Shown: piece after piece, positions 24,336 to 48,890 of the stretch
How the letters are laid out: each line of letters begins with the position of its first letter
Position numbering within the stretch: the stretch's first letter is position 1
From: Sedimentisphaerales bacterium
Lineage (GTDB): Bacteria > Planctomycetota > Phycisphaerae > Sedimentisphaerales > Anaerobacaceae
Assembly (NCBI GenBank): GCA_963708075.1
Contig: OY970194.1
Location: 832,001-896,000, forward strand
DNA length: 64,000 nucleotides
Reading direction: 5' to 3'
Translations under genes and position numbers: made by a program
The notes under the pieces: generated by a model
Database searches by the model: none
Told to the model about the DNA's origin: nothing
The model's input: the letters and a program-made list of their open reading frames with translations, nothing else

Positions 24336-25619
24336 TCACGCCGGTTGACCGGGCAGGGGGATGACGTTCTCCTGCGGGATTTCCACCGTGCCTTTCTCGA
24401 AGTCCTCGGCCGTCGGCTTGAGCGTCAGGTTGTAGAACTTGGGGTTCAGGTTCGGGTCTTCCATGATCTCTTTCCAGGAAACCTGCTGGCCGGTATAGGC
24501 GGAGATGCGGCCCATCACGGCCGTGGCGCTGGACTCGGCGACCGCCTTCGCCTGGTTCACCGGTTTGCCCTTGTTCACGTAGTACAGGGTATTGATCTGC
24601 TCCTGATGATGGCTGCTCGGCCCCTGCGGCAGATCGGCCGGGATCGGCGATTGCCGGCAGTCCGGGTGATCGCTGCCGTTGGTGTGGCCCTTCTCATAGA
24701 CGAAGTCATGCCCGGTCCAGTTCCAGCAGCCGTTGATCTGCCGGCACATGGAATGGATGTGCACGCCGTCGCCATAGTCGTAGTCCACGCTGAAGAAGTC
24801 GTACATGTCGCCCGCATTGCGCCGGCCCCGGCCGCCGAATCCCACGGCACTGATCGGCGGGCCCCCACAGTACCAATTGGCGACATCAATATTGTGGACA
24901 TGCTGCTCGACGAGATGATCGCCCGAGAGCGAGATCCAGTTTTGCCACGTCCGCACGAGGTCGTCCGGCGTCTTCGGGTTGATAGGGTGGGTCCAGAACA
25001 TGCTGGCGATGCAGAAGGAGACCCGGCCTGCGTAGAGCCTGCCGAGTGCCTTCTCGACCGCCACGGCCTGGTGGGTCTTGATGAAGTTCCAGTCATGGCG
25101 CATCTCTGTGCCGGCGACGATCACCAGACCCTTCTTCTCCGCTTCCGCTCCGGCGGCGATCACGCGCCGGCACCCCGGCGGATCGACTGCCACGGGCTTC
25201 TCGATGAATACGTTCTTGCCTGCCTTGACTGCCGCCTCCAGATGCAATGGCCGGAAGATCGGAGCCTGCGCCATCAGAACCGTCTGGACATCGGTTGCGA
25301 GCAGGTCGTGATAGCTCGCCGGGCCGTCGAAGCAGCGTTCCGGTGGGACGTTCAGGTCCTTTCCCGCCTGCAGGGCCCGCTCCTTGAAATAGTCGGAGAC
25401 CGCCACAAATTGGACGTTGAAGCCGAGAATCTTGCCCGCCTCCAGCGCATCGGCAGCCGCCCCGCGGCCCCGCCCGCCACAGCCGATCAGTCCCAGCTTG
25501 AACGTCCTGCCCTGCCCCTTGGCCGTCGTGCCAAGGATCAACGGCGCCCCGAGCGCTACACCCGTCCCCAACGTTCTCTGCATGAAATTTCGTCGCGACA
25601 ACCTGGCTGATTTCTCCAT
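24336..25619 (-). CDS. Tat-exported Gfo/Idh/MocA oxidoreductase
   Basis: LSRRNFMQ, LIGCGGRG, VFIEKP, EQHVHNID. AAGGAG RBS before ATG 25619. Confidence 0.92.
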   Translation of the reverse strand: MEKSARLSRRNFMQRTLGTGVALGAPLILGTTAKGQGRTFKLGLIGCGGRGRGAAADALEAGKILGFNVQFVAVSDYFKERALQAGKDLNVPPERCFDGPASYHDLLATDVQTVLMAQAPIFRPLHLEAAVKAGKNVFIEKPVAVDPPGCRRVIAAGAEAEKKGLVIVAGTEMRHDWNFIKTHQAVAVEKALGRLYAGRVSFCIASMFWTHPINPKTPDDLVRTWQNWISLSGDHLVEQHVHNIDVANWYCGGPPISAVGFGGRGRRNAGDMYDFFSVDYDYGDGVHIHSMCRQINGCWNWTGHDFVYEKGHTNGSDHPDCRQSPIPADLPQGPSSHHQEQINTLYYVNKGKPVNQAKAVAESSATAVMGRISAYTGQQVSWKEIMEDPNLNPKFYNLTLKPTAEDFEKGTVEIPQENVIPLPGQPA

Positions 25620-25809
25620 GAGACCGCTCCTTAGAAACTCTTTTGACCTCGGGGTCCCTGCAACAACACTGATCGATGGCGATAGGCAACGGTGTCCGCC
25701 CGCCGCCCGTGACTCTCGTCCCCCGATTGTAATCTCGTGACTGCTCCATTCAAGTGCAATTGTCCGCAATGACCGGAAGGTGTCGGTGCAGGTTTTGGGG
25801 CATTGTGCC

Positions 25810-25901
25810 GGGTGGCAGCGGCAAGCGCCGGCTTGCCGATGGCTCCTCAGATCCATAGCACCATCGGCAAGCTCCGCAGACTCCGCTTGCCGCTGCCACC
25901 C
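25810..25901. repeat. Dispersed hairpin element, copy 2
   Basis: Outer stem GGGTGGCAGCGGCAAGCG / CGCTTGCCGCTGCCACCC, inner stem GCTTGCCGATGG / CCATCGGCAAGC. Confidence 0.9.
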
Positions 25902-26007
25902 GGCCTCCGTGATTGAGCAGAATCCTCATTGGCGTTTCGTCCGGAGCGGCTACACTGAGCCGTGGTTCGGCAATCTATGAATGCATGGCGACGGAAAGGA
26001 GTGAGCT

Positions 26008-26592
26008 ATGAACGACATTGTCAAGATCCTGGGATTCGCGGGCAGCCTGCGAAAGGGCTCATACAACAAGGCCATTCTGCGTGCCGCCCTGGAGCTTGTG
26101 CCCGAGGATGCCGAGTTGGAGACGTTCGACCTCGAAGGAATTCCTCCGTTCAACCAGGACCTGGACACGGCCCCTCCCGCGAAAGTGAAGGAGTTCAAAT
26201 CCGGCATCCGGGCCGCGGATGCCATTCTCATTGCCACGCCCGAGTACAACTACTCCATCCCCGGCGTTCTGAAGAACGCGATCGACTGGGCGAGCCGGCC
26301 GTATGCGGAGAATGTCTTCGACGGCAAACCGCTGGGCATTATGGGGGCCTCCCCCGGCATGATCGGGACGGCCAGAGCCCAGTACGACCTGCGCCGGGCG
26401 TGCGTCTTCCTGAACATGTATCCGGTGAACCGGCCGGAGGTGATGGTCTCGTACTGCGAGGACAAAATCGACCAGTCCGGCAGAGTGACCGACGGACACA
26501 CTCGCGACAAGATCAGACAATTGCTCCAGGCGCTGGTCACATGGACGCGGCGACTCCGTGCCGCCGAGTACGCGGAACAGGCAACCTACTGA
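26008..26592 (+). CDS. NAD(P)H-dependent FMN reductase (ChrR/SsuE-like flavodoxin fold)
   Basis: GSLRKGSYN, TPEYNYSIPGVLKNAIDWASR, GTARAQ. Confidence 0.93.
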   Translation: MNDIVKILGFAGSLRKGSYNKAILRAALELVPEDAELETFDLEGIPPFNQDLDTAPPAKVKEFKSGIRAADAILIATPEYNYSIPGVLKNAIDWASRPYAENVFDGKPLGIMGASPGMIGTARAQYDLRRACVFLNMYPVNRPEVMVSYCEDKIDQSGRVTDGHTRDKIRQLLQALVTWTRRLRAAEYAEQATY

Positions 26593-26611
26593 GAGTCCAC
26601 GTCGCCGCGCA

Positions 26612-29149
26612 TCATTCGGACTTGATCACTCGGATGTCATCGACGTACACGCTGCCTGCGCCGCCCGCTTTCGGGGCGTCGCGGTCCCCGGCTCCAATGT
26701 ATATCTTCTTGATCGCCGACAATGTCACGCCGCTATCGCTGAACCTCTTCAGCGGTATCTTCCACTCGACCCATTGCGTTGCCGTCAGCACGGTGGAATC
26801 CGGGTGAGTGGCAACGGCTGTGCGATTGTTCTTGTCCTGAATCGCGACGTAGAACGACGCGGGCCCGTTGAGAGCCTTGCCCCGGACGTAGAGGACCAGC
26901 GTGTTCATACCGTTGACGGTCCAGTCCTGCGGTGCAGTCCAGGTTCGCTCGGCCTCCGAGTAGTACGGCTTGATCGCATTGTTGTAGTCCATCGGCATGG
27001 ATTGCGAGCCGCCGTGGACGATGCGGGTCTCCGCGATGGTGCCGCCGTAGTACGGGCTGTCCGCATTCCAGATGTCATGCCCGACGACGGCGCCCGTGTC
27101 GTTGCCGGGGACATTCACAGGCTCGCTGTAGCCATAGCCGTCAAGCCAGGCCTGGAATATGCGGTTCCCGACCTCATTCGTGTAGCTCTCGAAGTCATCG
27201 ACGACGAGAAAAGCGGCCGTGGTGAAACTCCAGACGCTGCCTCGCCACGGGCTGTCGGCGGCGGCCGTGTTGACCTCATCGACGCGCCAGTAATACGTCT
27301 TGCCCCAGTCCAGAGTCCCCGGGTCAAACGTCATGGCATCGGCCGCCTGGCGGTTACGATAAATGTCTGCGGTCGTTGCGTCCGCGTTGGCCACTGCCTC
27401 GGCATTGTCGCCAAAGTACACGTCATGATGCGTGGCGCTCTCACCTGGGCTCCAACGGAGCACCGGGGCCTGATAGACATTCACGGCTGTGTTGGTCGGG
27501 TACGGGGTGGTGGCCCGAAGCGGCAACTGCAGGGGACCGGCCGGGATGATCTGCTTTTCAATCGACGGACTCTGCCACGACAATGCGGCCTTGGCGCTGC
27601 CCCCGTCCTCATGCCAGTCCATCTGCAGGCGGTAGATCTGGCCGGCGACGAGATCCACTTCCACCACCTCATCCGCTGTGCTGCCCCAATTGTTGATCAG
27701 TAACCGGCCGTCCAGCCAGAGCCGGACCCCGTCGTCGGTGTTGACGAACAGTCGATACGTCTGACTGAAGGGGACCTCAAGATCGGCCTTCCAGATCGCC
27801 GAAACGTTGTCACTGAGCCCCCCGGCAATTTCTCCGCCGCCCCAATTGTGGTCGATAGAATTCTCGACTTGCGTCAGCACGGGGGCGCCTTCGGCCTCGG
27901 TGCCCTTGAAGTACTGGGCCTTTACGCCGAGGCCCGGGCCAACCGTCTTGAAACTCCAGACGTTGCCCGGCCGAACCGTGTCGTCGATGAGATGCTCGTC
28001 GATCCGCCAGTAGTAGGTGGTATTCGCCGCGAGCGTGCCGGGGTCGAATGTCATCATAGGCTGATTGCCCTTGCGAGCACTCGCATCGCCCGCCTGGACA
28101 GCCGCCTTGTCCGTGCCGAAGTAGACATCGTGGGACACCGCGCCGGCCCCGGGCAGCCACTCCAGGTCGGCCTCGACGTCCACCCCTTTGCGATTGTCCC
28201 ATGGCTGAGGCGCGTAAGCGGCAGCAGGCGCTGAGGTGAAGCTCCAGACGTCGCCCGTGTAGACGGTCTTGCCGTCTGTTCCGATCTCATCCACACGCCA
28301 GTAGTAGGTCGTCTCCGGGGTCAGAAGAGGGGTAGCGATATGCGCCGCCCGGGAGAGGGGCAGACGGGTCACGTATTCCGCCTGGCCCGGCGTCGGGTTG
28401 ACGCCGAAGTACAGATCGTGGGAAGCGGCGGCGACCCCGGGCGTCCACTGAAGCAGCGGCGAGGACACGTTGATGGCTTTGTCCGCCGGTGTGGGCTCTG
28501 ATGCCTTGGCCGGTCCTCTATCGAACACCGCTGTCACCAGCTTGCCGCCGACATTCGATGTGACGGCGTAGCCGATGTAGACCTTCGGGGGAATCCCGGC
28601 TGCGGTGTCGCTGCCCACCTCCGTCCACGTCTTTCCGTCAGGCGAAACAGACCCGGCAAATGTGTCCCCGGTCCGCGTGACCTTGACCCAGTAGGGTGCG
28701 GTCATCGTCCCGCTACTCTCCACCAGGGCGACGCCGCTGACGGCAGTCCGGTAGAAAAGCATGACCCCGTGGTCCCTGGTGTCCGAATTGACGCTGACCC
28801 CCATGAAGATGAACGGCGAGCCGGCCATGTTTGGCACCACGCGAATCATCACGCCCGCCATAGAGTAGTCAGTCACAGGAGGATCGATGCTGGCCACCCT
28901 CGCGACCAGTTCACCGTTGCCGGTGAGTTCCTTGTACACGTAGCGGAACTGGTCCGACGTGCCCATGATCCCGGTGCCGTCCCCCTTGATGGTCCACGAG
29001 TCCGTGGCCGCCTGATACTGAGCGCTGCCGGCCGCCGCGGGACCGCCGACGTCAATGCTCGTCCAGCCCGCCGGCAGTTGGGCCTGAACAGAGGGTACAA
29101 AGGACAGGATTGAAAGGACCACAACCAGACGAATCACCGCTCTGCACAT
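26612..29149 (-). CDS. Secreted modular protein: N-terminal beta-sandwich, Fn3-like YYWRVDE repeats, PA14 domain, C-terminal CBM-like domain
   Basis: AGGAGG RBS, signal peptide, three 'YYWR(V/I)DE...VWSF' modules, PA14 motif 'TDDGVRLWLDG', then 'VVDDFESY...VYVDDIRV'. Confidence 0.85.
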   Translation of the reverse strand: MCRAVIRLVVVLSILSFVPSVQAQLPAGWTSIDVGGPAAAGSAQYQAATDSWTIKGDGTGIMGTSDQFRYVYKELTGNGELVARVASIDPPVTDYSMAGVMIRVVPNMAGSPFIFMGVSVNSDTRDHGVMLFYRTAVSGVALVESSGTMTAPYWVKVTRTGDTFAGSVSPDGKTWTEVGSDTAAGIPPKVYIGYAVTSNVGGKLVTAVFDRGPAKASEPTPADKAINVSSPLLQWTPGVAAASHDLYFGVNPTPGQAEYVTRLPLSRAAHIATPLLTPETTYYWRVDEIGTDGKTVYTGDVWSFTSAPAAAYAPQPWDNRKGVDVEADLEWLPGAGAVSHDVYFGTDKAAVQAGDASARKGNQPMMTFDPGTLAANTTYYWRIDEHLIDDTVRPGNVWSFKTVGPGLGVKAQYFKGTEAEGAPVLTQVENSIDHNWGGGEIAGGLSDNVSAIWKADLEVPFSQTYRLFVNTDDGVRLWLDGRLLINNWGSTADEVVEVDLVAGQIYRLQMDWHEDGGSAKAALSWQSPSIEKQIIPAGPLQLPLRATTPYPTNTAVNVYQAPVLRWSPGESATHHDVYFGDNAEAVANADATTADIYRNRQAADAMTFDPGTLDWGKTYYWRVDEVNTAAADSPWRGSVWSFTTAAFLVVDDFESYTNEVGNRIFQAWLDGYGYSEPVNVPGNDTGAVVGHDIWNADSPYYGGTIAETRIVHGGSQSMPMDYNNAIKPYYSEAERTWTAPQDWTVNGMNTLVLYVRGKALNGPASFYVAIQDKNNRTAVATHPDSTVLTATQWVEWKIPLKRFSDSGVTLSAIKKIYIGAGDRDAPKAGGAGSVYVDDIRVIKSE

Positions 29150-29276
29150 GATGTCCTCCTTCAAATGGGAAACCTCCGTTGCCGTGTCGTGCCCACCGAG
29201 GCACCTCCTATACCGTTGAAGACCTGCAAAATGCCGCAATTTGGCAAAGAATGGCTGGCAGAGATGACCACCCCGT

Positions 29277-29305
29277 ATGATAGCAGATCGCCGCCCTCGT
29301 GGCAA
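29277..29305 (-). promoter_or_regulatory. Putative sigma70 promoter for the PA14-domain gene
   Basis: TTGCCA-N17-TATCAT with TG-extended -10 on the minus strand. Confidence 0.5.
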
Positions 29306-29340
29306 CAGAAAACCGGCCTTATCAGACCCCGCCCCGGCCC

Positions 29341-30876
29341 GGTGTGCGACTACATTTCGTGGGGTCAGGCGGGTATCTTGCGTTGGATGTCCCAGTAGTT
29401 ATGCCATAGATGGCTGGAACGCACTGACGCCAGGGCCATCATGGCCTCAGCATTGGGTTTGTCCCAGCGCATCCCTGGGCCTTTGAGCCGGACCGTCAAC
29501 GTCTTGCAGAAGGCCTCTGTCGGGCCCGAGCCGATCTCATAGCCGGCCGCTTTGAATTGTGGATACTGCGTCATCTCCTGGCGGACATCAATGAACTTGA
29601 TCAACTGCTCCAGGGCTTTGCGTTTGTCGGCGGCTCGAAGCGTCTTACGCAGGGCTTGGATCTGCTCCAGGGCCTGCTCGGGGCCTTGCTCTAAGAAGCA
29701 GCCACAGATCTGCTCACGCCAATGCTGGCTTTGCACACTGCCTTGGCCATAGACGCTTTGACTGGCCTTGATCACGTTGTCCCGCAGGTGATAGTAATCC
29801 AGGATGTTGGCCTTGAGCATCGGCAATTGGAGGTGGTATTGCTTGCGAATCCACTCGGCCCCGTCGCTCACCGAGTAGGCCAGAGCGGCTTGATCCAGCT
29901 TGAGTTGGCCGGCGTGCTGACGCATCAACTGGCCCAGCGTCTGGGCATTGCCGCTGGTGCCGATGGCATATTGGTGCTGTTTCGAGGGATCGTAGAACGC
30001 CACGATCTTGAACTCCTTGTACGGCAGATCACTGCCGGGATGCATCGGCCGACGCTTGGGCTGGCCCTTACGGCGACGGGCCCGTCGCTTGCGGCGTTTC
30101 TCTTTCTCCACCTGGGTGACCAAGGGCACCTTAACCCCATCGGCTCCGGTGATGATGCAGGTGGATTTGTTCGGTCCGGACCGGCAGTCCTCGGCCGCCC
30201 AGTCGGGGCCCAGAGCCCCCGAACGCTGCTGCGTCAGGACTTGCCGGCCCTCACCCTCGACAAGGCCGCGGACCGTCTCATGGCTGATGTGCAATTGACC
30301 GACGTAGGCCAGATTCTCGGCGGCGGTGCGAAAGTCACTGCCGACCGCCGCCCGGCAGCATAACTGGCGAACCCCCACGCTGTAGCGACTGTGGCTCATG
30401 CCCAGCCATTGATCCACCGGGGTGATGGAGCCCTTGCCGCGATTCCAATAGACCCGGCGGCGGATCTGAACAGGACCATTGACCGTCAGATACTCAATCG
30501 AACGGCAGCCTTTACTCTCGTACCTGGGGCCGTCGTCGCTGGGCATCGGGGGAAAAAGCCGCCTCACTGTGCTGCTGGCGTAATTGAAGGGCTCTCTCAT
30601 AGAGACGCTGGCGAAACAACGCACTGGCCTGGCGAACGAGTTCTTCGCTATCGGCAATGATGCGTCCGGCCTGGGCCTGATTGACGGCCTTGACCACGTC
30701 CTCGATCAAGGTATCGACCTCTCCCCTCATCGCCTTTTTCAACTGTGAGGCAGTGAGCTTCTCGTGCATGAGTACTTCCTTGCTGTATGACTGAATGACT
30801 GAATAATTCCATTCTCATCATACGCTGTCCAACTGCCCACAGGCCATACGATCCCCACGAAAATTAGTCGCACACC
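29341..30876 (-). mobile_element. Insertion sequence, ISKra4-like (UPF0236-type DDE transposase), 1536 bp
   Basis: TIRs GGTGTGCGACTACATTTCGTGGGG (29341-29364) and CCCCACGAAAATTAGTCGCACACC (30853-30876), 22/24 match. CGGCCC direct repeats at 29335-29340 and 30877-30882. Confidence 0.92.
29365..30769 (-). CDS. ISKra4-like transposase in two overlapping ORFs (30512..30769 and 29365..~30560) joined at TTTTTCCCCC
   Basis: GADG, SDGAEWI, LDYYH, IGSGPTEAFCK, RLKGPGMRW motifs. AAGGAAG RBS before ATG 30769. Confidence 0.88.
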
Positions 30877-30942
30877 CGGCCCGCGGCTGAAGGGTCGCCA
30901 GCCATGAGAAATTGGCTTTGTTTCGCACAATGGGCCCTGCTC

Positions 30943-30971
30943 GTAGGGGCGGGTTTGAAACCCGCCCGTAC
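30943..30971. repeat. GTAG-type REP-like palindrome
   Basis: GTAGGGGCGGGTTTGAAACCCGCCCGTAC: GTAG tetranucleotide followed by a hairpin. Confidence 0.75.
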
Positions 30972-31276
30972 AACTCTCGATGCCCTTAAAGGCACACTAC
31001 AAACCGGCCAGGCCAAATTGGCTTTGTTTCTCACCGGGGAATGATCCGTGTCTTCTTTTATAACCCCCTTTCCAAACAGAGGTTAGCGTCTATCCGTCTC
31101 TCGCCGAATTGGCTTTGTTTCACACACCAACTCCTGGCCCGCCCGGCGACAACCCCCGGGAATTGGCTTTGTTTCGCAGGACGCGCCGCAGCCGAATTGG
31201 CTTTGTTTCGCAAGACGGCTCCTGGATTCCCGGCGACTGTCTCTGGAATTGGCTTTGTTTCGCAGATTCGGCCCGT

Positions 31277-31318
31277 ACTCCGCACTCCACAATCTGCACT
31301 CCGCACTCCGCAATCCCA
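31277..31318. repeat. Heptamer tandem repeat (ACTCCGC)n, ~6 units
   Basis: actccgc actccac aatctgc actccgc actccgc aatccca. Confidence 0.85.
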
Positions 31319-31454
31319 GGGCGTCCGCCCCATAATTGGCTTTGTTTCGCACAACCGCCTTGTTGCTGTCCGCCCAGTGACGGCCCCCGGATTTCACTGC
31401 GTTCCGTCGGTCGGCCGGCAGGCGTGTCTCGCGGGGCATGGAAGACCCTCCGGG

Positions 31455-31487
31455 AATTTTGATTTTTGATGTTTGATTTTTGATTTG
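31455..31487. repeat. Heptamer tandem repeat (ATTTTTG)n, ~4.5 units
   Basis: aattttg atttttg atgtttg atttttg atttg. Confidence 0.85.
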
Positions 31488-31560
31488 AACGGGGCCATCC
31501 GGCCTGCCTGGGCGCGCCGGCGGATCGGTGAGACGTGGTCACCAGACCCTATCCTATAGA

Positions 31561-31588
31561 TAGACGCTCCAGGGGCCGAAATGTTGCA
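31561..31588 (-). promoter_or_regulatory. Putative ECF-sigma promoter pointing into the repeat array
   Basis: Minus strand reads TGCAAC-N16-CGTCTA, matching the AAC-type -35 and CGT-type -10 of many ECF sigma factors. Confidence 0.5.
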
Positions 31589-31764
31589 GGAAGTTTCGTT
31601 AGATAGCGACAATACATTGAGATGCTTTCTAAGCTCTTGCGGCTGAATGACTTATACGTGGCTACCCTCCGGTGTCCCGCCTCTCGGCTTGCATTTCCGC
31701 AGGTTTGGGCGTACACTGAGGTTGTGGCCTCCGAACTGTTGCGCTATTGAGATCGAGAGCAGTC

Positions 31765-32814
31765 ATGGTCGCGGATACGACACTTGCGGATGGCAGTACC
31801 CGAGGAAAGGCACTATGGCTCAAGCTCAGTGTGCTTGGGGCTGTGGTACTCTGTCTCCTTATTGCGGTCCTGCTGCATCGAGACAAGTTGTCTACACCTA
31901 TTCCCAGTGATTCTACGCGGGCCGAGGTTGAGCTAAACGAGTTGCCTAATCCTGTTCCCATCGATTCTACGCGGGTCGAGGTCGAGCCACCCGCGTTGCT
32001 TGCGCCTATCCCCAGTGATTGTACGCGGGTCGAGATCGAGTACTACCCATCTATATGGGACTACTTCAGGTGGTATCCCATGAGCCCCGATATCTTCAGT
32101 TCGAAAGAGATGGACAGGCTCCAATCGCACGAACCGTTCATCATCAACGATCAGATGCTCATCGAGTCTGTCAGACGCACTCTCCGTCCGATAGCCGTTC
32201 TGAACGGCAACGCGGGCCCGGGGGATGAAGCCAAGTACATAGAGGTTCGATGCTTTCGAGGTAACGAGCCGTTGGCGTCCCTCCGCTTGTATCGGCCGGA
32301 TCTCATGGTGACTAATGACGGGCGCAGATTCCGAGTCAACGTCTGGAATGACGGGCCAGGAAGCTACAGCCTTGAATTGAGCCCGCTTATACATCGCGCC
32401 ATGTGTGCGCGGAATCTGTTGTTGCTGCATCGGTTCATGTTTGAATACATGAGTGGGAGATACCCTCCGCCAGCCAACTGGTGCGATGTTCTGCGCAAGC
32501 CTGTCCGCCAAGAGTCTGTCGATTGGAGGCGGCGTCGCGACTTCCCGTCTCCGTCTCCTGCTGCTGGCCATTTCTCGTGTTCCAGTATGCGCCGAGGCAA
32601 ATGCAGTTATGCGATGAATCCGGATTGCCAGCCGAGTTCACCACCCGATACGGTCCTTTTGTTTGAGACGAGAGATGGATGGAATCAGCATGGTGGCCCG
32701 GAGTTGTTTACGTTTGACAATCACTTTCCCAGGGGCGGCTCCGTTCTCCTGAATGATGGGACCGTCAAGTTCATTCGGACTGAAGAGGAACTGAAGCAGC
32801 TTCGCTGGCAGTAG
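31765..32814 (+). CDS. Membrane-anchored hypothetical protein with C-terminal domain resembling H-X9-DG / DUF1559-type tails
   Basis: N-terminal TM helix. YPPPANWCD, YAMNP, VLLFET..GWNQHGG, H..GGSVLLNDG. Codon usage looks less GC3-biased than neighbours. Confidence 0.75.
   Translation: MVADTTLADGSTRGKALWLKLSVLGAVVLCLLIAVLLHRDKLSTPIPSDSTRAEVELNELPNPVPIDSTRVEVEPPALLAPIPSDCTRVEIEYYPSIWDYFRWYPMSPDIFSSKEMDRLQSHEPFIINDQMLIESVRRTLRPIAVLNGNAGPGDEAKYIEVRCFRGNEPLASLRLYRPDLMVTNDGRRFRVNVWNDGPGSYSLELSPLIHRAMCARNLLLLHRFMFEYMSGRYPPPANWCDVLRKPVRQESVDWRRRRDFPSPSPAAGHFSCSSMRRGKCSYAMNPDCQPSSPPDTVLLFETRDGWNQHGGPELFTFDNHFPRGGSVLLNDGTVKFIRTEEELKQLRWQ
31897..32040 (+). repeat. Intragenic 54-bp-period triplication (P(I/V)PxDxTRxE(V/I)E)
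   Basis: Units start at 31897, 31951 and 32005, e.g. cctattcccagtgattctacgcgggccgaggttgag. Confidence 0.85.
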
Positions 32815-32988
32815 GCCCGAGGCGGCCCCGAACAGGCAAACCGGGGTGACGGGGAAAAGGCTTTGCAGCGGGGGCGGTTCGCAGTAGGATTCTCATCAAG
32901 GTACCGGCGGGTCGGTCGGGATGGATCGGCTTTGGCCGGGTGACGGAATTCAGGAGTTGTGCACTTGATGGGATGCGGAGCGGCGATT

Positions 32989-35900
32989 ATGAGCAGCATT
33001 CAACGCAACTTGTCTGTCTGTATCTGTTTTGTGGTCCTGATTCTGGTTCAGGCGGGGCCGGGGTGGGCGAAGCCGAAGGCCAGGGCCTGGGAGGGGACGG
33101 TCACGATCCCTACCTATGGCTGGGAGGAGGACGTCAACCCGAAGTTCTGGGCCCTGGAGGACCAGATCAAGCTCTCGACGACCGTGAAGGGGGCGATTGT
33201 GTATCCGTACACGATGCAGGACCATCTGTCCCGGGAGAAGAAGGACCGCACGTACAAGGCGCTGTTCCTGGAGAACGAGTACCTGAAAGTGACCTGCCTG
33301 CCGGAACTGGGCGGGCGGCTCCATTCCGTGCTGGACAAGACCGAAGGCAAGGAGACGTTTCACCTTAACCGGGTGATCAAGCCGAGCATGATCGCCATGC
33401 GCGGGGCGTTCATCAGCGGCGGTGTGGAATGGAACGCCGGACCGCAGGTGCACACGGTGACGATTGTCTCGCCCGTCGATGCCCTGGTCGGGACGAATCC
33501 GGACGGCTCGGCCTACCTCGAGGTGAGCAACCTCGAAAAGACCCTGCGGACCCGCTGGACCGTCCGCGTGACGCTGCATCCCGGCCGGGCCTATCTCGAT
33601 GAGCAGATCCGCATTTCCAACCCCATCGACGCCGTAAACCCTTACTACTTCTGGAATTGCACCGCGTTCCCATGCCGGCAGGGGACCCGGTTCATCTATC
33701 CCATGACGCTCGGGACCGACCATAACGGCGTCCGGTTCTTCTCCTGGCCCATTCACGAGGGCAAGGATCTGTCCTGGCTCAAGAACTACGATTCGCCGTC
33801 GTCGATCTTCTCGGTGGATTGCACCTACGATTTCTTCGGGGGCTACGACGTGGACGCGGACCGGGGTGTCGTGCAGGTGGCGGACCATTACGAGCTGGTC
33901 GGCAAGAAGGCCTGGACGTGGGGGACGTCGCAGTTCGGCCTGGTGTGCCAGCAGAACCTCACCGACGAGGATGGCCCTTACATCGAAATCCAGAGCGGTC
34001 CTCTGCCGACGCAATCCGATTACGGCATGCTCGCACCGAGGCAGGTGGTCGCCTGGCGCGAGTGGTGGTACCCGATTCATGGTCTTGGCGAGGGATTCGA
34101 GTTCGCCACAAGGGACTTGGCTGTCCAGACGATCCGCAAAGACAGGCAGCTTGAGCTTCGTATGCTGGCGACGGGGAAATTCTCCGATGCCACCTGTTCG
34201 ATCCGTCCGAAGGGAGCCGAGGGCGTCACGAAGCGGCTGGACCTGTCTCCAATGGAGCCGCAGGTCGTGATCGTGTCGGCGGACGCGAACACGCCGGTCG
34301 ATGTGACGGTTAGGAGCAGTAGCGGAAGTATCCTGGCGACCTTCACGACGCCTTTGCCCATCGCCAAGCTGAGTCCGCCGCAGGTATCCAGACTCATGGA
34401 TAAGCCCGAGGCCGAGCTGACTGTCGAGGAGAAGTACCTGAGGGGCCAGAAGCACGATCTCGGGACGAATCGCAAGAGGGCCCGCGAGTACTATGAAAAG
34501 ACCCTTGCGGTTGATCCCGCATACGCACCGGCGCTGCGTGGCTTGGGCGTGCTCGACCTGGAGGCGGCGCTCTACGAGTCCGCGACAGGACGGCTGCAGA
34601 AGGCCGTCGAGCGAGATCCCGGGGATGGCCTCGCATGGTATTTCCTGGGCGTGACCCACCTGAAGACGGGCGATGCAAAAGAGGCGCTTCGCTGTGCCCG
34701 TCAGGCGACCCGATGCGCCGGGACCGGCTCGCTGGCTCTCGATCTTGCCGGCCGGGCCCATATGGCGCTGGGAGATCGCCGAGAGGCCCACGATGCCTTT
34801 GAAAAGGCGGTCCGCATGGACGCGCGGGACACAGTTGCCCGCGACCACTGGTTGCTGGCCCTGTATGCCAAAGGGGATACTCGTGCCGCAGTTGTGCAAG
34901 CACGGAAAGCCGTCGCACAACAGCCTACCAGCCTTGTGCCAAGAGCGCTGCTCGCGCTACAGGGCGACAAGGAAATGAACCGCTTTGTGAAAGAGGCCTG
35001 GGCTTTCGTAGGTGAAGACGAGTTTGAGATACTGGAGACCAGCCTCGTCTTTGCCGAGGCGGGATTGGCGAAGGAAGCGGCGAAGGTTCTTTCCGCCACT
35101 TGCGTGGATGCGGTTCCTCAGGCCGAACGCAGTCCTCTGCCGCTTTACTATCTCGCGTGGCTCGCTTCTCTACAGAACGATGAGGGGACATCACGGACAT
35201 GGCTGAAGCAGGCGGCCCAAACCTGCAAAGACTACGTGTTTCCTTCGCGTCCGGAGGAACTGGAAATCCTGAAATATGCAATTCGCGAGAATCCGGGGGA
35301 TGCCTACGCGCATCTCCATATCGGGAATCTGTACGCTCACCTTGGCCGTCCGGCGGAGTCCGGGGAGCACTGGCAAAAGGCGGCCGAGCTGGACCCGTCT
35401 CTGAGCGTCGCCTACCGCAATCTAGGACTGAATGCCTGGGCGGCGGCAGAGGATCTGGCCGCGGCGGAGCGATTCTACAAGAAGGCGATTGAGGCTCGGC
35501 CGAGGGATCAGACATTGTACCGCGACCTGGCGGAGATCGTCATGGCGCAGGATAGACGCCCCGACGCGATCCGCATCCTGGAATCGACGCCTCATGAGAA
35601 GCTGCCTCGCGCGGATATCATCATCATGCTCGCGCAGGCGTACCTGGATGAGCAGCAGTACAGCCGGGTGATCGAGCTGCTCGAATCGACGCCGTACTTC
35701 GTGAACTGGGAGGGTCAGACGATCACGTGGGACCTCTACTACCGGGCGCACATGAAGCGCGGCCGGGCCCGCCTTGACGACAAGGACCTTGCGGGGGCGC
35801 TGCATGACTTCGAAGCCGCCCTGGCGTATCCGGAAAACATCGGCGTCGGCCGGTCGAACAGGCCGAGAGAGGCCACAGCGCAATACTGGAGGGGAAAGGC

Positions 35901-36030
35901 GCTCCAACTCCTCGGCCGCCTGGACGACGCGAGATCGGCCTGGAAGCAGGGCGCGGCGGGCATCGAAGGCGGCGACGAGCAGAACGAACATCGCCAACTC
36001 TGTGCCACAGCGTTGCAGGAGACAAAGTGA
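32989..36030 (+). CDS. DUF5107-domain plus tetratricopeptide-repeat protein, secreted
   Basis: LENEYLKVTCLPELGGR, ISGGVEWN, YYFWN, GKKAWTWG, YIEIQSG, followed by many TPR helices. Confidence 0.88.
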   Translation: MSSIQRNLSVCICFVVLILVQAGPGWAKPKARAWEGTVTIPTYGWEEDVNPKFWALEDQIKLSTTVKGAIVYPYTMQDHLSREKKDRTYKALFLENEYLKVTCLPELGGRLHSVLDKTEGKETFHLNRVIKPSMIAMRGAFISGGVEWNAGPQVHTVTIVSPVDALVGTNPDGSAYLEVSNLEKTLRTRWTVRVTLHPGRAYLDEQIRISNPIDAVNPYYFWNCTAFPCRQGTRFIYPMTLGTDHNGVRFFSWPIHEGKDLSWLKNYDSPSSIFSVDCTYDFFGGYDVDADRGVVQVADHYELVGKKAWTWGTSQFGLVCQQNLTDEDGPYIEIQSGPLPTQSDYGMLAPRQVVAWREWWYPIHGLGEGFEFATRDLAVQTIRKDRQLELRMLATGKFSDATCSIRPKGAEGVTKRLDLSPMEPQVVIVSADANTPVDVTVRSSSGSILATFTTPLPIAKLSPPQVSRLMDKPEAELTVEEKYLRGQKHDLGTNRKRAREYYEKTLAVDPAYAPALRGLGVLDLEAALYESATGRLQKAVERDPGDGLAWYFLGVTHLKTGDAKEALRCARQATRCAGTGSLALDLAGRAHMALGDRREAHDAFEKAVRMDARDTVARDHWLLALYAKGDTRAAVVQARKAVAQQPTSLVPRALLALQGDKEMNRFVKEAWAFVGEDEFEILETSLVFAEAGLAKEAAKVLSATCVDAVPQAERSPLPLYYLAWLASLQNDEGTSRTWLKQAAQTCKDYVFPSRPEELEILKYAIRENPGDAYAHLHIGNLYAHLGRPAESGEHWQKAAELDPSLSVAYRNLGLNAWAAAEDLAAAERFYKKAIEARPRDQTLYRDLAEIVMAQDRRPDAIRILESTPHEKLPRADIIIMLAQAYLDEQQYSRVIELLESTPYFVNWEGQTITWDLYYRAHMKRGRARLDDKDLAGALHDFEAALAYPENIGVGRSNRPREATAQYWRGKALQLLGRLDDARSAWKQGAAGIEGGDEQNEHRQLCATALQETK

Positions 36031-36065
36031 CAGCGCGTCTGCGAAGGTCTCACTCCGTTGAGTAT

Positions 36066-36159
36066 GGGTGGCAGCGGCAAGCGCAAGCTTGCCGATGGCT
36101 CTCTCATGCGGCGGAACACCATCGGCAAGCTCCGCGGGCTGCGCTTGCCGCTGCCACCC
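36066..36159. repeat. Dispersed hairpin element, copy 3
   Basis: Outer stem GGGTGGCAGCGGCAAGCGCA / TGCGCTTGCCGCTGCCACCC, same inner stem as copy 2. Confidence 0.9.
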
Positions 36160-36187
36160 GTCACCGGCGTTATCTCAGTAGTAGCGT

Positions 36188-37447
36188 ATGACAGACATGA
36201 TGAGCAGACGTGAGAGACTGATGGCCACCCTGCAAGGCCGACCGGTGGATCGCCCGGCTGTCAACTTCTACGAGGTCGGCGGATTCGCGATTGATCCGGC
36301 TGATCCCGATCCACTCAACGTGTACAGCGATCCCTCCTGGCGGCCGCTGCTGCAACTGGCCGAGGAGCGCACCGACCTGATCCGGATGCGAAGCGCGGTG
36401 AGAGCCCGGTCGTGGGACCCACAGACGGCGGTAGGGAATTGCGGAGTGCGGAGTGCGGAGTGCGGAGTGGCGCCGGGGCCCGAATCCGAAATCCGAAATC
36501 CGAAATCTGAAATGATTCGGGCCCCCAACCTTCGATCCGATCTCGTACGGACACATCAGTACGCAGAAGATCGCTGGCGTTGCACTCGCGTGACGATTCG
36601 CGTTGGCGGCAGAACCTTATCATCTGTCCGACGCCGCAATCCTGACGTAGATACGGTCTGGACGACGGAGCACCTGCTCAAGAACGTTGAGGACCTGCAA
36701 GCCTATCTTCAACTGCCCGACGATTTCTTTGCGGAGGAGATCGATATCGCCAGGCTCATCGACGAGGACAGCCGGCTCGGCGACCGCGGTATTGTCATGG
36801 TTGACACCGAGGACCCCATTTGTGCGGCGGCGTCCCTGTTCAGCATGGAGGATTTTGTTGTCCTCGCAATGACGGAGCAGAGGCTCTTCCACCGCCTCCT
36901 GGAGCGACTCTCGCAGTTCCTGCTCGCCAGGACACAGCGCGTGTCCGAGGCATTCCCGGGGCACTTGTGGCGGGTGTACGGCCCCGAGTATGCGGCCGAG
37001 CCGTTCTTGCCGCCGCATCTGTTCAGGGAGTATGTCGTCCGTTACACGGGGCCCATGGTGAAGGCCATCCAGAAGCACGGCGGCTTCGCCCGTGTCCACT
37101 GTCACGGCCGGCTCCGGGCCATTCTCGACGACATTGTGGCCATGGGCGCCGACGCCACCGATCCCATCGAGCCGCCACCGCAGGGAGACGTCGAGCTGGA
37201 CTATGTGCGCCAAAGGTACGGCGACCGGCTCGTGCTCTTCGGCAACATTGAGCTTTGCGACATCGAGCTGATGGAGCCGGTCGAGTTCCACAAGGTTGTA
37301 GAAAAAGCCCTCGCGGAGGGGACCCAGGGACAGGGCAGGGGTTTCGTCCTGATGCCTTCGTCCGCCCCGAACGGCAGGCATATCTGCCCGCGAATCCTGA
37401 AGAACTACGAGACGATGGCAGAACTCGCCGAGACCTTCCGCCCCTGA
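36188..37447 (+). CDS. Uroporphyrinogen decarboxylase family protein with in-frame heptamer-repeat insertion
   Basis: MSRRERLMATLQGRPVDRP, GPEYAAEP, RVHCHG, DPIEPPPQGD, LFGNIE, GFVLMPS. Confidence 0.85.
   Translation: MTDMMSRRERLMATLQGRPVDRPAVNFYEVGGFAIDPADPDPLNVYSDPSWRPLLQLAEERTDLIRMRSAVRARSWDPQTAVGNCGVRSAECGVAPGPESEIRNPKSEMIRAPNLRSDLVRTHQYAEDRWRCTRVTIRVGGRTLSSVRRRNPDVDTVWTTEHLLKNVEDLQAYLQLPDDFFAEEIDIARLIDEDSRLGDRGIVMVDTEDPICAAASLFSMEDFVVLAMTEQRLFHRLLERLSQFLLARTQRVSEAFPGHLWRVYGPEYAAEPFLPPHLFREYVVRYTGPMVKAIQKHGGFARVHCHGRLRAILDDIVAMGADATDPIEPPPQGDVELDYVRQRYGDRLVLFGNIELCDIELMEPVEFHKVVEKALAEGTQGQGRGFVLMPSSAPNGRHICPRILKNYETMAELAETFRP
36440..36513. repeat. Paired heptamer tracts (TGCGGAG)4 and (AATCCGA)4 inside CDS
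   Basis: Directly visible at 36440-36467 and 36483-36513. Confidence 0.92.
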
Positions 37448-37543
37448 TGCGTCATATCAATACTGCCGGGTGACGACGGCAATCGCAGCCATTCACGGCT
37501 CTTCGATCCATCGCAGGAAGATGAAAATACCCTTGAGCTGCTC

Positions 37544-37618
37544 GTAGGGTGGGTCCTTGACCCACGCGGTTCTTCGAGTGAAACATCCCTTCACGCGTGG
37601 GTTGAGAACCCACCCTAC
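37544..37618. repeat. Inverted pair of GTAG-type REP elements between convergent genes
   Basis: GTAGGGTGGGTCCTTGACCCAC ... GTGGGTTGAGAACCCACCCTAC. Confidence 0.8.
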
Positions 37619-37665
37619 ATGTTAACGCCATCCGCGATCTGGAACCTGCGCTTTGAGCACTGGGG

Positions 37666-39690
37666 TCACTGCCTTGGCGTCGCATCGAATACGAGGACCT
37701 CAAAGGGCTTCAGCTCGAACGCATGTTCCTTGCCTGCTGATAATTCGACCGCTGGGGCTGCGGCATCGCTCTTCCATGGGCTTTTCAGGGAGCACTTCTG
37801 AGCAGCCCCTTCGGGAAGCTCGAAGGCTTTGCCGATGTCGAGGGTGATTCTGCCGGGCTTGTCGCTGGGGTTGCGCAGGCCGATGATGCCTTTGCGTTTG
37901 GACCAGGAGGCCCAGCCGTACACTTCGCCCTTGATCGGGTCGCCGCCGATCCAGTGCGTATCCACGAGAGTGTCGGCATTATCGCGCGACCATTTCGCCG
38001 CCTCGGCCAGTGCGTCCCAAGCCGCCGCATCCAGCAGAGAGGGCGTGAGGTACAGTTCCTGGCAATTCGTGCCGCTGGCGAAGAACGCACGGATGTCTCC
38101 CACCAGACCTTCCGGCTCATCGGGCAGCCCGTGATTGGCGAACATGACGCCCTGGGTCATGAGGGAGTTGATCGGGTACAAGGGCGCTCGCAGCACGACG
38201 TTGTGGTAAGTCTCGTTGTCTCGGTACGTGATCTGCTGCTGGCGTTTGGAGCCCCAGCCGCACGTGCCCCAGTCATTGCCCGACCGCCAGGTCGAGTCCG
38301 CGTACCACAACCAGTAGGGCGAAGACCACGTGCCGGTCGTGACGTTGACGAAGAGATCGGGCTTTGCGTCGCGCAGATCGGTGATCAGCCGCAGCAGGGC
38401 CTCTACGTCCCCGGCATACTCCGGCTCGGCCCCCGTGGGCGCGCCGCTTCCGCTGATGCCGTCGAACTTGAAATAGTTCACATCGTAGTTGCGCAGCATC
38501 TTCATGCACGCGTCACGGAATCTCCCATAGTACTTCGGCCCCGCCAGAGAGAAGCCGCGTTTATTCGTCTCGAATCCCTCCTGCTCGCCATACTTCATCC
38601 GCTGCTCTTTGGATTTTCCATACCCGCCCCAGGGCGACAGCCACACGCCGAGCGTCGATCCATACTTCGCCGCCATCTGTTGCAGCGGCGCGAACCCGTT
38701 GGGCAAGCCGTCATGGAATTGCCACAGCGTCGCCGGATTGTCCCAGCCATCATCCAGCACGAGCGAGTCCAAGACAACCTTCCGCCCTTCGATCAACTCC
38801 TTGCCAAACAGATCGATCACCTTGAGAGCATCGCCCTCCAGTATCTTCTCGCCACCATAGCCGATATCGTACCAGCTATTGTAGTGAAGAAACGGCCGAT
38901 AGGGCTGTGCCCGCTCCCGCTCAACATAATACAGGAACGCCCGGCGAAGCTGCCCCTTCGGAGCCACGCCCATCACTGAACTGTACGTCTCCTCGTTTCC
39001 TGACATTAGCGAGGTTGTTCGAGGCAAGCTGCATTGGAGTTCCGAGTCAACTGTTCGAATCCTGGATAGCGGCTGCTCGAAGGCGAAAAAGAACATGTTG
39101 GCGACTACGACAGGGCAGCCATCCAGCGTGCCCACCGGTTTTGCCTCCGATGCTCCCAATTGCATCAGGACAATTTCCCTGACATCGGCAGCGTTTTTCG
39201 ATGCAAGCGATATGTACTGACGAACGTAGTTGGAGCCGTTACGCAGTTCGGCACGCCACCGAACCACGAGACTATCATCTGATGTGGCCATGACCACGCT
39301 GATCCGCTTGCCGCTGTCGCTAGCTTCAACCTTAGGGTCTGGCCGGGGGCTGTCAATATCCGGCCCGCGCACGACTTTGAGGTCAGACGCTTTTACAGTT
39401 CGCCCGTCCTTCAATCGCAGTTGAAAGCACTCTCTCTCCCGCAACCATAGGGCGACAGAACCTTTGTGCCAGATGTGGAAGGGCTTGAGATGTCCATCTG
39501 TGACAGTCCACCTGCATTCCAGGGTGTCGTTGTGCAAGAGGATGTTCCCCTCTTCGGCAAAAGCGATTGCCTCTCCAGGAGCCCGGCCAGGGTACTCGAC
39601 AGGACCTCCCGCCTTGACACTATCGACAGTGGACAGTCCGATCAAGATCGTCCAGCAGGCGAGATCTCGTTTCCACCATATTGCTGCCAT
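37666..39690 (-). CDS. Secreted GH36-like (clan GH-D) glycoside hydrolase; family often mis-annotated 'enterotoxin'
   Basis: PFLHYNSWYD, LVLDDGWD, GVWLSPWGGY, YFKFDG (KxD nucleophile motif). Confidence 0.75.
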   Translation of the reverse strand: MAAIWWKRDLACWTILIGLSTVDSVKAGGPVEYPGRAPGEAIAFAEEGNILLHNDTLECRWTVTDGHLKPFHIWHKGSVALWLRERECFQLRLKDGRTVKASDLKVVRGPDIDSPRPDPKVEASDSGKRISVVMATSDDSLVVRWRAELRNGSNYVRQYISLASKNAADVREIVLMQLGASEAKPVGTLDGCPVVVANMFFFAFEQPLSRIRTVDSELQCSLPRTTSLMSGNEETYSSVMGVAPKGQLRRAFLYYVERERAQPYRPFLHYNSWYDIGYGGEKILEGDALKVIDLFGKELIEGRKVVLDSLVLDDGWDNPATLWQFHDGLPNGFAPLQQMAAKYGSTLGVWLSPWGGYGKSKEQRMKYGEQEGFETNKRGFSLAGPKYYGRFRDACMKMLRNYDVNYFKFDGISGSGAPTGAEPEYAGDVEALLRLITDLRDAKPDLFVNVTTGTWSSPYWLWYADSTWRSGNDWGTCGWGSKRQQQITYRDNETYHNVVLRAPLYPINSLMTQGVMFANHGLPDEPEGLVGDIRAFFASGTNCQELYLTPSLLDAAAWDALAEAAKWSRDNADTLVDTHWIGGDPIKGEVYGWASWSKRKGIIGLRNPSDKPGRITLDIGKAFELPEGAAQKCSLKSPWKSDAAAPAVELSAGKEHAFELKPFEVLVFDATPRQ

Positions 39691-48500: not shown

Positions 48501-48787
48501 TCCGGCGTCTGATACTGCTTGTAGTAAGGGTCCCTCTGCCAGATGGGATTGATGTGGCCCGTCCACTGGGTCTGCATCGACGGCGGATCGCCGTATCCCT
48601 GGGCCGTCAGCACGCCGGGCAGCGCGATCCGGTCGGGAAGGTCACGCTCGAACCATTTGCCCGCCTCGCCCTGGTCCTGGCGGTCCAACTGGAAGGACCA
48701 TGTGCCCGCCAGATCGACCTGATCCGCGCGGGCGGTTAACGGGAGGAGTGAAAACGCCAGCAGAAACAGTCTCATCGTGCTCTCCAT
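45552..48787 (-). CDS. GH2-family glycoside hydrolase with C-terminal F5/8 type C (CBM32-like) domain; frameshift near 46625
   Basis: DLAGTWSF, LERPHW, IRFHSWCPP, NHPSF...GNE, HEIGQW. Shifted frame continues KLNLEVSIPG...WDLWVFP into ORF 45552..46502 (AIDDNPSTIWHT, TYLPRQD). Confidence 0.85.
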
Positions 48788-48823
48788 GCAGGACTCCTTC
48801 ACAAGTCTTGAGCTTTCCCGGCG

Positions 48824-48852
48824 AGTATACTGTAGAAGCCCGACCGCCTCAA
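48824..48852 (-). promoter_or_regulatory. Putative sigma70 promoter for the GH2 operon
   Basis: TTGAGG-N17-TATACT on the minus strand. Confidence 0.5.
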
Positions 48853-48861
48853 TACTGCGCA

Positions 48862-48890
48862 TTGAAATCCCCGCACCTCGGCGGTATACA
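48862..48890 (+). promoter_or_regulatory. Putative sigma70 promoter for the aldolase gene (divergent)
   Basis: TTGAAA-N17-TATACA. Confidence 0.5.

Follow-up and report, generated by a model that had tools for sequence, protein, structure and literature searches.

An array of 18-nt direct repeats in a Sedimentisphaerales genome and its link to an unannotated gene family

What is a run of seven near-identical 18-nt direct repeats, set apart by spacers of unequal length, in an intergenic gap of a planctomycete chromosome? The question is raised by a stretch of 64,000 bases (the window; bases 832001-896000 of the genome of a Sedimentisphaerales bacterium, a single 7.5-Mb contig with 60.4% G+C) in which the motif AATTGGCTTTGTTTCGCA forms such an array. 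Across several phyla the motif is linked to a protein-coding gene, here called X, on whose 3' side it lies, and it is nearly invariant while X falls to 30-50% identity and the spacers are unalignable. X is a very large unannotated family, now with a precise candidate partner, a 12-18-nt site following the gene. Our tentative reading, to which we would give somewhat less than an even chance, is that the motif is the recognition site of protein X on a proliferating modular element, and that the window array is an X-less, non-autonomous copy.

The motif, its leader and gene X

The motif matched seven times in the window, always on the plus strand (starts at 30910, 31016, 31107, 31161, 31195, 31247 and 31334; up to three mismatches allowed), against a chance expectation of 0.03, and none of 100 shuffles gave seven matches. 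Five copies are exact and two carry a single mismatch, in both cases at base 16; bases 1-15 are identical in all seven. Start-to-start spacings of 106, 91, 54, 34, 52 and 87 nt leave spacers of 88, 73, 36, 16, 34 and 69 nt. These figures agree with a preliminary description of the locus, which had reported seven same-orientation copies, an invariant 15-bp core and spacers of 16 to 88 bp. The motif is also clustered genome-wide, a point that description had proposed to check: with up to two mismatches allowed, 258 copies (158 on the plus strand, 100 on the minus strand) occupy 46 places, of which 5 hold a single copy and 41 an array of 2-11 copies. Every array keeps to one strand, and a pattern read backwards as a control had no match in the genome. 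Genome-wide spacing ranges from 33 to 375 nt, most commonly 87 (26 times) and then 34 (10 times), with spacers of 15-357 nt. Motif bases 2-13 are almost invariant in a logo built from copies picked by the motif itself, and the flanks are merely biased in composition, being C-rich on the motif strand.

All-against-all comparison of the arrays with 3 kb of flank showed that they have sequence in common 3' of the motif as written. On the opposite strand, the shared part is a leader of about 220 nt with a Shine-Dalgarno-like GGAGG and an ATG, and in 9 places the ATG opens X, a gene of about 175 codons. All nine full-length copies of X (one of them frameshifted) end 2-532 nt from an array, which lies on the 3' side of X. 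The leader adjoins 22 of the 41 arrays, with side and relative orientation unchanged in 22 of 22, and arrays that lack X keep the ATG and 13-19 X-like codons before the first motif. Full-length X begins MGSQARVAANRRNAAKSTGP, whereas the window remnant encodes MPRETRLPADRRNAVKSGG (about 19 codons). Because the leader is kept and X is reduced to its first ~19 codons, the window array is an internally deleted, X-less derivative; its core lies on the strand of the leader and the X start, downstream of them, which makes it an X-linked motif module as defined here. The minus strand, on which the motif reads TGCGAAACAAAGCCAATT, is therefore probably the functional one. This strand assignment, the gene-deleted state, the modular nature of the spacers and the extension of the family across phyla were all missed in the preliminary description.

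The link to X was then evaluated in 80 X loci chosen by protein alone, from Phycisphaerae, Sedimentisphaerales, Pirellulales, other Planctomycetota, Acidobacteriota, Alphaproteobacteria, Verrucomicrobiae, Ignavibacteriales and Actinomycetota. Between -60 and +800 of the X end, the exact core AAAC[AG]AA[GC]CCAA occurred 120 times on the strand of X (57 of the 80 loci with at least one copy) and 12 times on the opposite strand; the remaining 495,673 bases held one copy on both strands together. X is thus a consistently linked gene of the kind that the preliminary description had proposed to look for, both in this genome and at those 57 loci. Motif-like sites also follow X in loci of Acidobacteriota, Actinomycetota, Alphaproteobacteria and Ignavibacteriales, some of them reversed. 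Reversed motifs follow X at loci L087, L090, L095 and L110, inverted pairs occur in one Sedimentisphaerales group, and degenerate or reversed sites include TGGCTTCGTTTCG in L087 and ATGGCTTTGTTTCG in L095.

A common layout consists of two motif copies about 90 nt apart flanking a conserved 72-nt module. In an alignment of 8 sequences, the window unit at 31016-31124 matched units of other orders at a mean column identity of 66%, both motifs and an internal TTAT block being invariant. In the congener G006, 40 motif pairs 86-96 nt apart were found in 20 stretches (31 with a TTATG-type block were aligned), and the canonical unit of motif, 72-nt module and motif is multi-copy there, sometimes in tandem. 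Many X homologues have been called at 250-315 residues, with C-terminal extras that hold AKQSQ, CETKPI and RNKAN; because these are the three frames of the motif within single proteins, the motif follows X in other organisms and is not read in a single frame.

Exhaustive searching with X returned 22,936 cluster representatives (50% clustering) at E up to 0.001 and 6,005 at 1e-10. With a word-indexed search 682 homologues were obtained, every named one being "hypothetical", from sources that include Sedimentisphaerales and Planctomycetota, and Atlas matches were to "hypothetical protein" clusters only. X had no match in Pfam, NCBIfam, PHROGs, PADLOC (five X homologues) or PDB sequences, and tblastn (E up to 1e-3) detected it in none of 72,556 plasmid and 50,697 phage records. 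In an alignment of 54 members, 12 of 20 invariant columns fall within the first 36 residues, and the N-terminal 40 residues are the best conserved part (consensus ANRRNAxKSTGPRTxEGKAVVAQNAVKHGL). The AlphaFold model is all-helical with long helices (mean predicted local distance difference test score [pLDDT] 80.2); a Foldseek search of the PDB was empty at E up to 0.001, and the best VIA-align results (Z 7.7) were generic coiled coils or long helices only. Neighbours of X were diverse (55 open reading frames [ORFs], 31 loci) and included no conserved partner gene, the 14 upstream ORFs being mutually unrelated. The TGPRTP of X resembles the minor-groove-binding TGQGRTP of H-NS, which we take as a lead only.

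The window array and its spacer modules

The array sits in an intergenic gap of about 1 kb, whose features, and those toward which it points, are as follows.

30910-31351, minus strand: array of seven copies of the 18-nt motif, read on the strand of the leader and X (pattern match; orientation relative to the leader)
30910-30927, 31016-31033, 31107-31124, 31161-31178, 31195-31212, 31247-31264 and 31334-31351: the motif copies
31016-31124, minus strand: canonical unit of motif, 73-nt module and motif (full-length alignment with units 3' of X from other genera and orders)
30928-31015, plus strand: 88-nt spacer with a GTAG-tagged hairpin of repetitive extragenic palindrome (REP)-like type, GTAGGGGCGGGTTTGAAACCCGCCC (arms 30943-30956 and 30958-30971; inverted repeat 93% complementary)
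31125-31246, plus strand: three short spacers (36, 16 and 34 nt) between motif copies 3 and 6, the 16-nt one being the minimal unit
31265-31333, plus strand: 69-nt spacer of the heptamer-run class (ACTCCGCACTCCACAATC / ACTCCGCACTCCGCAATC)
31383-31439, minus strand: start remnant of X, with ATG at 31439 and codons for the remnant peptide, after which homology to X stops; the rest of X is deleted
31389-31615, minus strand: conserved leader module (homology of array a4, 480-705, to a5, a8, a11, a12, a13, a14 and a24)
31446-31451 and 31456-31490, minus strand: Shine-Dalgarno-like GGAGGG and CA-rich tract of the leader, with the block CTATCTAACGAAACTTCCTGCAACA...GAGCGTCTATCTATAGGATAGGGTCTGGTGACCA farther upstream
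29342-30877, minus strand: insertion sequence of 1536 bp with a transposase ORF at 29365-30657 (Pfam UPF0236, PF06782, E 2e-13)
26612-29305, minus strand: host gene for a PA14-domain protein, to which the leader-to-array direction points, now split off by the insertion sequence

The leader lies at genome positions 863615-863389 (73% over 231 nt; 12 leaders were aligned by eye), and on the minus strand the array begins 38 nt downstream of the leader and X remnant. The extent originally proposed for the array, 30883..31600, holds the motif copies at 30910-31351, but its far end takes in the leader module of the element. The accompanying claim that no credible coding sequence covers the region stands, the ORFs of 142, 140 and 118 residues that traverse the array being mechanical, with the nuance that the 118-residue ORF (31439..31083, minus strand) opens with the genuine start remnant of X and then continues through the repeats. 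A sigma-70 scan gave no site in the leader, and terminator-like hits on the plus strand depend on stems of 5-6 pairs in which part of the motif pairs with bases upstream of it.

Like arrays of clustered regularly interspaced short palindromic repeats (CRISPR), the arrays show a leader followed by alternating repeats and spacers. Unlike them, they have an 18-nt repeat (against about 23-50 nt) and spacers of highly variable length that fall into recurring families, and no Cas model matched among 39 non-overlapping window ORFs of at least 120 residues (PADLOC; window only), the single PADLOC match in the window being a CARF/beta-galactosidase fusion model at 46613-48862. Both the non-CRISPR label and the reported lack of a cas gene in the window were therefore borne out. 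Rfam gave no match with E up to 1 in window positions 29500-33000 and nothing over arrays or units in 29 other loci, where the only hits, all elsewhere, were Acido-Lenti-1, tRNA, nhaA-I and weak chance matches; a match to an Rfam family, which the preliminary description had named as counting against it, was thus not found.

In a unit-by-unit printout of all arrays, about ten spacer modules recur: runs of the heptamer TCCGCA(A/T/C), four hairpins whose first bases are GTAG, one half of a large palindrome (GGGTGGCAGCG...), two further modules (one marked by 'acttcaaactt', the other 72 nt long) and minimal linkers of 15-16 nt. The arrays are mosaics of the motif and these modules. Simple signatures class 127 of the 212 spacers, and many of the 85 unclassed ones form recurring groups by eye; the commonest recognised class is the heptamer run (signature alone in 33 of 212), which reads GCGGA(A/U/G)U on the leader strand. 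The hairpin module of the 88-nt window spacer also occurs in arrays a9, a33 and a39, and its signature has 82 copies genome-wide; GTAG-tagged hairpins of several families give 360, 82, 192 and 209 signature matches. Hairpin and heptamer signatures number in the hundreds genome-wide and lie mostly far from the motif. In its vicinity (up to 150 nt), six signatures never depart from the orientation of the motif (16/16, 15/15, 12/12, 70/70, 63/63 and 56/56) and four others are mixed (7/9, 15/21, 18/24 and 21/27). The earlier proposition of a conserved motif with freely varying spacers consequently divides, in that the motif is indeed conserved far more strongly but the spacers are recurring modules. 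GTAG-tagged palindromes are of the REP type linked to REP-associated tyrosine transposases (RAYTs) and have been reported in the Planctomycetes-Verrucomicrobia-Chlamydiae (PVC) superphylum (passages of PMC3733652). The genome holds 9 Y1_Tnp (IS200/RAYT-type) matches, two of which (G000:C1:478768-479094 and 481697-481957) lie within about 4 kb of array a3 (482605-483124).

Near-identical 87-bp units occur in runs within arrays, and those of a5 and a13 are half-copies of the large palindrome. The palindrome itself, near-perfect (GGGTGGCAGCGGCAAGCG...CGCTTGCCGCTGCCACCC), is present at L031:2541-2640 and about 35 other genome sites, 3' of X in several elements, and its 18-nt arm signature has 381 matches genome-wide. 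Beyond the last motif of arrays a5, a10, a11, a13, a14, a29 and a35 (e.g., L031:3112-3260), and beside one isolated motif copy, lies a conserved 145-bp segment that terminates in a tRNA T-arm-like GCGGTTCGAATCCGC and an acceptor-like tail. Neither ARAGORN nor Rfam calls a tRNA or other RNA in this segment, which might be what remains of an ancient integration site, carried along as the element was copied. A tRNA or tmRNA origin of the motif itself was rejected: of the 50 genes found by ARAGORN in the genome none contains the motif, and one tRNA lies less than 250 nt from an array.

Recognition site, transcript or passive repeat

In the full element as we picture it, the minus strand of the window would carry a leader (with a putative promoter, the CA-rich tract and a ribosome-binding site), X of about 175 residues, and then one or more copies of TGC(A/G)AAAC(A/G)AA(G/C)CCAAT(T). 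The invariant N-terminal basic segment of X (ANRRNAxKSTGPRTxEGKAxxxQNAxKHGL) would read the motif and, if so, the arrays would act as multivalent X-binding platforms. The unit of leader, X and motif may propagate as a selfish element, from which gene-deleted derivatives would retain the cis parts only, that is, leader and array. Arrays could grow as motif-plus-linker units are duplicated in tandem (e.g., in the 87-bp runs) and as REP-type hairpins enter the linkers. Because the N-terminal segment of X and the motif travel together over large distances while the rest changes, recognition of one by the other is the simplest account. Judging from sequence, we lean slightly toward recognition at the DNA level since the site occurs in either orientation after X in other phyla, while recognition at the RNA level draws support from what is seen in Planctomycetota, namely fixed polarity, a leader and co-oriented modules. 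A more far-reaching claim, which we hold to be doubtful, is that X and its downstream motif make up a new class of self-propagating element, in which a new nucleic-acid-binding family with its own 14-18-nt site spans at least five phyla and, in some Planctomycetota, has become an accretion system that strings non-coding modules between sites and, together with a leader that bears a promoter, sets them ahead of housekeeping and stress genes. Full-text literature searches gave nothing relevant for the motif, the X signature or intergenic repeats of Sedimentisphaerales, and no description was found in Rfam, Pfam, NCBIfam, PHROGs or PADLOC.

Several observations weigh against X recognition of the motif on a mobile element. 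With the BLAST threshold used, the leader was undetected at 19 of the 41 arrays, and 23 of the 80 X loci are without the exact core, several of these being cut contigs or partial X and others carrying degenerate or reversed sites. Sequence and fold searches found no recognisable DNA- or RNA-binding domain in X, and confidence in the model of its N-terminal segment is low (pLDDT under 50 at residues 15-17 and 31-39). For the element, terminal inverted repeats, target-site duplications and empty sites have none of them been demonstrated. Since paralogous elements are only 70-92% identical to one another, there is no sign of very recent copying, in contrast to the insertion sequence next to the array, which has 100%-identical copies. 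Cooperative binding on one face of the DNA would predict helical phasing, so it also counts against the proposal that nothing appeared at 10-11 nt, the best periodicities being about 5.9 and 18 nt (R 0.24, against 0.21 for the 95th percentile of the null). The one-strand bias in Planctomycetota (120 forward, 12 reverse), finally, fits a role in a transcript at least equally well.

Such a role could be that of an RNA scaffold or sponge, in which the array is transcribed from a leader promoter, either by itself or as the 3' untranslated region of X, and single-stranded UGCGAAACAAAGCCAAUU segments between structured modules titrate X, another RNA-binding factor or a small RNA. The transcript would start in the leader near the TAGTATAT block and run through the array. 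We find this rather doubtful, although it would accommodate the fixed direction of arrays behind the leader, the six always co-oriented module signatures (set beside the four mixed ones) and the C-rich flanks that distinguish the motif strand. In local folds of 253 copies the motif had an unpaired probability of 0.57 in the leader direction, against 0.42 for its flanks, while the other strand gave 0.46 against 0.47; this accessibility is, however, expected from A-richness alone. REPs are thought to act largely as RNA elements (PMC3733652, in part). RNAalifold nonetheless returned an energy of 0.0 and no consensus structure for 25 units, 53 pooled units or the 31 G006 units alone, Rfam has no match, the promoter is only putative given the sigma-70 scan of the leader, and the four loci with a reversed motif, together with the inverted pairs in the Sedimentisphaerales group, are hard to reconcile with a site that works at transcript level. 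Alternatively, the arrays might be passive clusters resembling REPs or bacterial interspersed mosaic elements (BIMEs), the 18-mer being the best-kept part of a miniature repeat that the genome's IS200/RAYT-type Y1 transposases, or recombination, move or copy; it would build up wherever intergenic regions permit, and its link to X would be hitch-hiking without function. The abundance of several GTAG hairpin families in the spacers and genome-wide, the Y1_Tnp matches near array a3, the PVC reports of such hairpins and a 100-fold variation in copy number between congeners all agree with this, and mosaic REP arrays containing other short motifs are known from Escherichia coli BIMEs. Still, we judge it unlikely: a genus-level junk repeat would not stay after X across phyla (120 copies against 1), at loci without REP context, and the motif is non-palindromic, has no GTAG tag and is far better conserved than the adjacent modules. 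If the motif were merely the well-kept part of a junk repeat, it would represent a new repeat family and little more.

Accretion of cassettes, with the motif as a crossover or target site and each module plus one motif as a tiny non-coding cassette inserted at an existing motif in an integron-like manner, strikes us as quite unlikely. Arrays combine a small repertoire of motif-bounded modules in different orders, with one shared orientation per array and a promoter-like leader at one end, and in G006 the canonical unit is itself multi-copy; these features suit a cassette model. On the other hand, no recombinase (tyrosine, serine or DDE type) accompanies X or the arrays among the 55 neighbouring ORFs at 31 loci, the motif has no attC-type imperfect palindrome, spacers of 15-16 nt are too small for cassettes, and the near-identical 87-bp runs resemble plain tandem duplication. 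A coding role for the motif is unlikely as well, and the specific form in which it encodes part of a small or repeat protein (M(R/Q)NK(A/P)N..., AKQSQF, ETKPI), arrays being C-terminal extensions of X or small ORFs, is to our mind extremely so. It draws on the 87-bp units of array a5, which are in frame with X and give an open frame of 370 residues, on the stretching of many X homologues by gene callers, and on an ATG before the first motif in 10 of 10 units read from low-GC relatives. Against it, single predicted proteins contain the motif in all three frames, most spacings, in the window as in the whole genome, are not divisible by 3, conserved blocks differ in relative frame from taxon to taxon (units of 90, 91 and 92 nt; a +1 indel in L071), the start position is GCG in 5 of 23 units, and X stops before the motif in low-GC genomes. 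A reading of the motif as a sigma-54 promoter was also rejected, as its spacing, taken from the sequence, is GG-N9-GC and not the canonical N10.

Set beside known systems, the arrays would by analogy be most like iteron- or centromere-type protein-binding repeats next to their gene in function and look most like BIME or BOX mosaics, and the full defining features of none of the systems compared here were found in them. Enterobacterial BIMEs and REP clusters and pneumococcal BOX elements are extragenic, high-copy mosaics of short motifs and hairpin modules, and the arrays described here resemble them in this respect, in copy numbers that vary among related species and in the GTAG hairpins of their spacers. 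They differ in that the constant part is an 18-nt non-palindromic direct repeat in one orientation per array, starting from a conserved leader and a specific gene, with the motif-gene pair kept across phyla; a REP or BIME is defined by a palindromic, often GTAG-tagged unit, commonly in alternating orientation, and GTAG hairpins occur here only in some spacers. Plasmid iterons (P1 incA and F incC, downstream of the rep gene) are 17-22-bp direct repeats bound by a Rep initiator in or next to a replication origin. Likewise, the arrays are same-orientation direct repeats with irregular spacing beside the gene of a putative binder and would form a binding or titration platform, but they number 41 on a chromosome, no origin features were seen around them, X is absent from the plasmid and phage records searched, and X is unlike any solved chain, Rep initiators included. 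The iteron-like sites suggested in the preliminary description were accordingly not shown, there being no replicon context. Nor were its CsrB/RsmZ-like sponge RNA or its recombination sites, to which no recombinase is linked. The arrays share with such sponge RNAs many short, irregularly spaced motif copies in a non-coding stretch, predicted to be more accessible on one strand, but the 18-mer itself contains no GGA, the motif that defines these RNAs when set in hairpin loops, and neither an Rfam match nor a consensus structure was found. Integrons, which are defined by a tyrosine-recombinase integrase beside attI and by cassettes with a terminal attC imperfect palindrome, similarly have a promoter-proximal, same-orientation array of variable-length units with a repeated site, and modules here recur in different orders; however, no recombinase was found among the 55 neighbouring ORFs or among 8 window ORFs in 24336-39690 (Pfam), no attC-type palindrome is present, and the non-coding units are as short as 34 nt. 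In type III toxin-antitoxin systems (ToxIN), ToxI consists of exact tandem repeats upstream of the toxin, and ToxN, an endoribonuclease of the ToxN/AbiQ type, belongs to a different fold class. The resemblance is a protein gene paired with an adjacent short direct-repeat array that the protein may recognise; the arrays here, though, lie downstream of X with irregular spacers, and the five X homologues searched had no PADLOC match.

Congeners and neighbouring host genes

The degenerate 13-mer ATTGGSTTYGTTT occurred in 24 of 24 congeners, with 10 to 1063 copies per genome against 0-1 for controls, and X in 23 of 24, with 1-23 matches; the exact G-variant of this genome is abundant in some congener species only. 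Copy number and position therefore vary strongly among species of one genus, in some of which the motif has multiplied 100-fold, and positions are non-syntenic. The DUF5107/TPR gene to the right of the window array illustrates this. Orthologues exist in 22 of 23 congeners, and in eight stretches upstream of the gene, taken from seven congeners (DNA identity of the conserved neighbouring gene at most 87%), a leader and array were found in one species only (G013, on two contigs) and were absent in six other species. Window positions 29343-33050 had no counterpart in the eight stretches. The two G013 loci, L114 (G013:C8) and L120 (G013:C7), have four motif matches each, with gaps of 273, 92 and 233 against 273, 92 and 240, and represent either a recent duplication or assembly redundancy (completeness 74%).

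At 30 of the 41 arrays the next gene in the leader-to-array direction is co-oriented. For the Pfam scan of first genes, 30 were taken and 11 left out (5 fetched, 6 not fetched); 26 such co-oriented genes were scanned and 22 had a Pfam match, mostly to housekeeping or stress functions. They include serine hydroxymethyltransferase (glyA), an M48 peptidase (htpX-like), AhpC/TSA, RecQ, an RF-1-domain protein, ClpX, Clp_N-AAA (clpC-like), an RNase R-like N-terminus, amidophosphoribosyltransferase, EF-G (fusA), TypA/BipA and an extracytoplasmic function (ECF) sigma factor. Because arrays precede such genes, they could affect core-gene expression and genome plasticity. Proteostasis and translation functions are plentiful among the downstream genes, counted without a background comparison.

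The insertion sequence between the distal end of the window array and the PA14-domain gene is separate from the repeat element. It has 6 genome copies at 99.7-100% identity, with terminal inverted repeats at both junctions, and 2 of the 6 copies lie less than 200 nt from a motif array. On the other side, between the leader and the DUF5107/TPR gene, an ORF of 355 residues (31747-32814, plus strand) has no Pfam match and no homologue upstream of that gene in seven congeners, and holds three tandem 54-nt (18-residue) repeats at 31883-32044. One low-GC Pirellulales locus (L044:4570-5091, plus strand) has an open frame of 173 residues that begins ahead of the first motif, crosses the canonical unit and enters an AP2 DNA-binding domain (PF00847; E 1.7e-7, marginally below the cut-off); it is either a real fusion or a chance frame in T-poor sequence.

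Two RNA families were met near X. An nhaA-I RNA (RF03057) matched at L031:1340-1395 (minus strand), about 600 nt upstream of one X copy, with 49.2 bits against a gathering threshold of 37. Acido-Lenti-1 (RF01687) was considered as part of the leader and rejected, as it gave one near-threshold match upstream of X (L044) and none in 18 further loci. Its 116 genome matches are unrelated to the leader and mostly form inverted pairs about 80-150 nt apart (e.g., G000:C1:4215198-4215398 and L033:102-295), an arrangement that resembles the paired termini of a miniature inverted-repeat element more than an independent small RNA.

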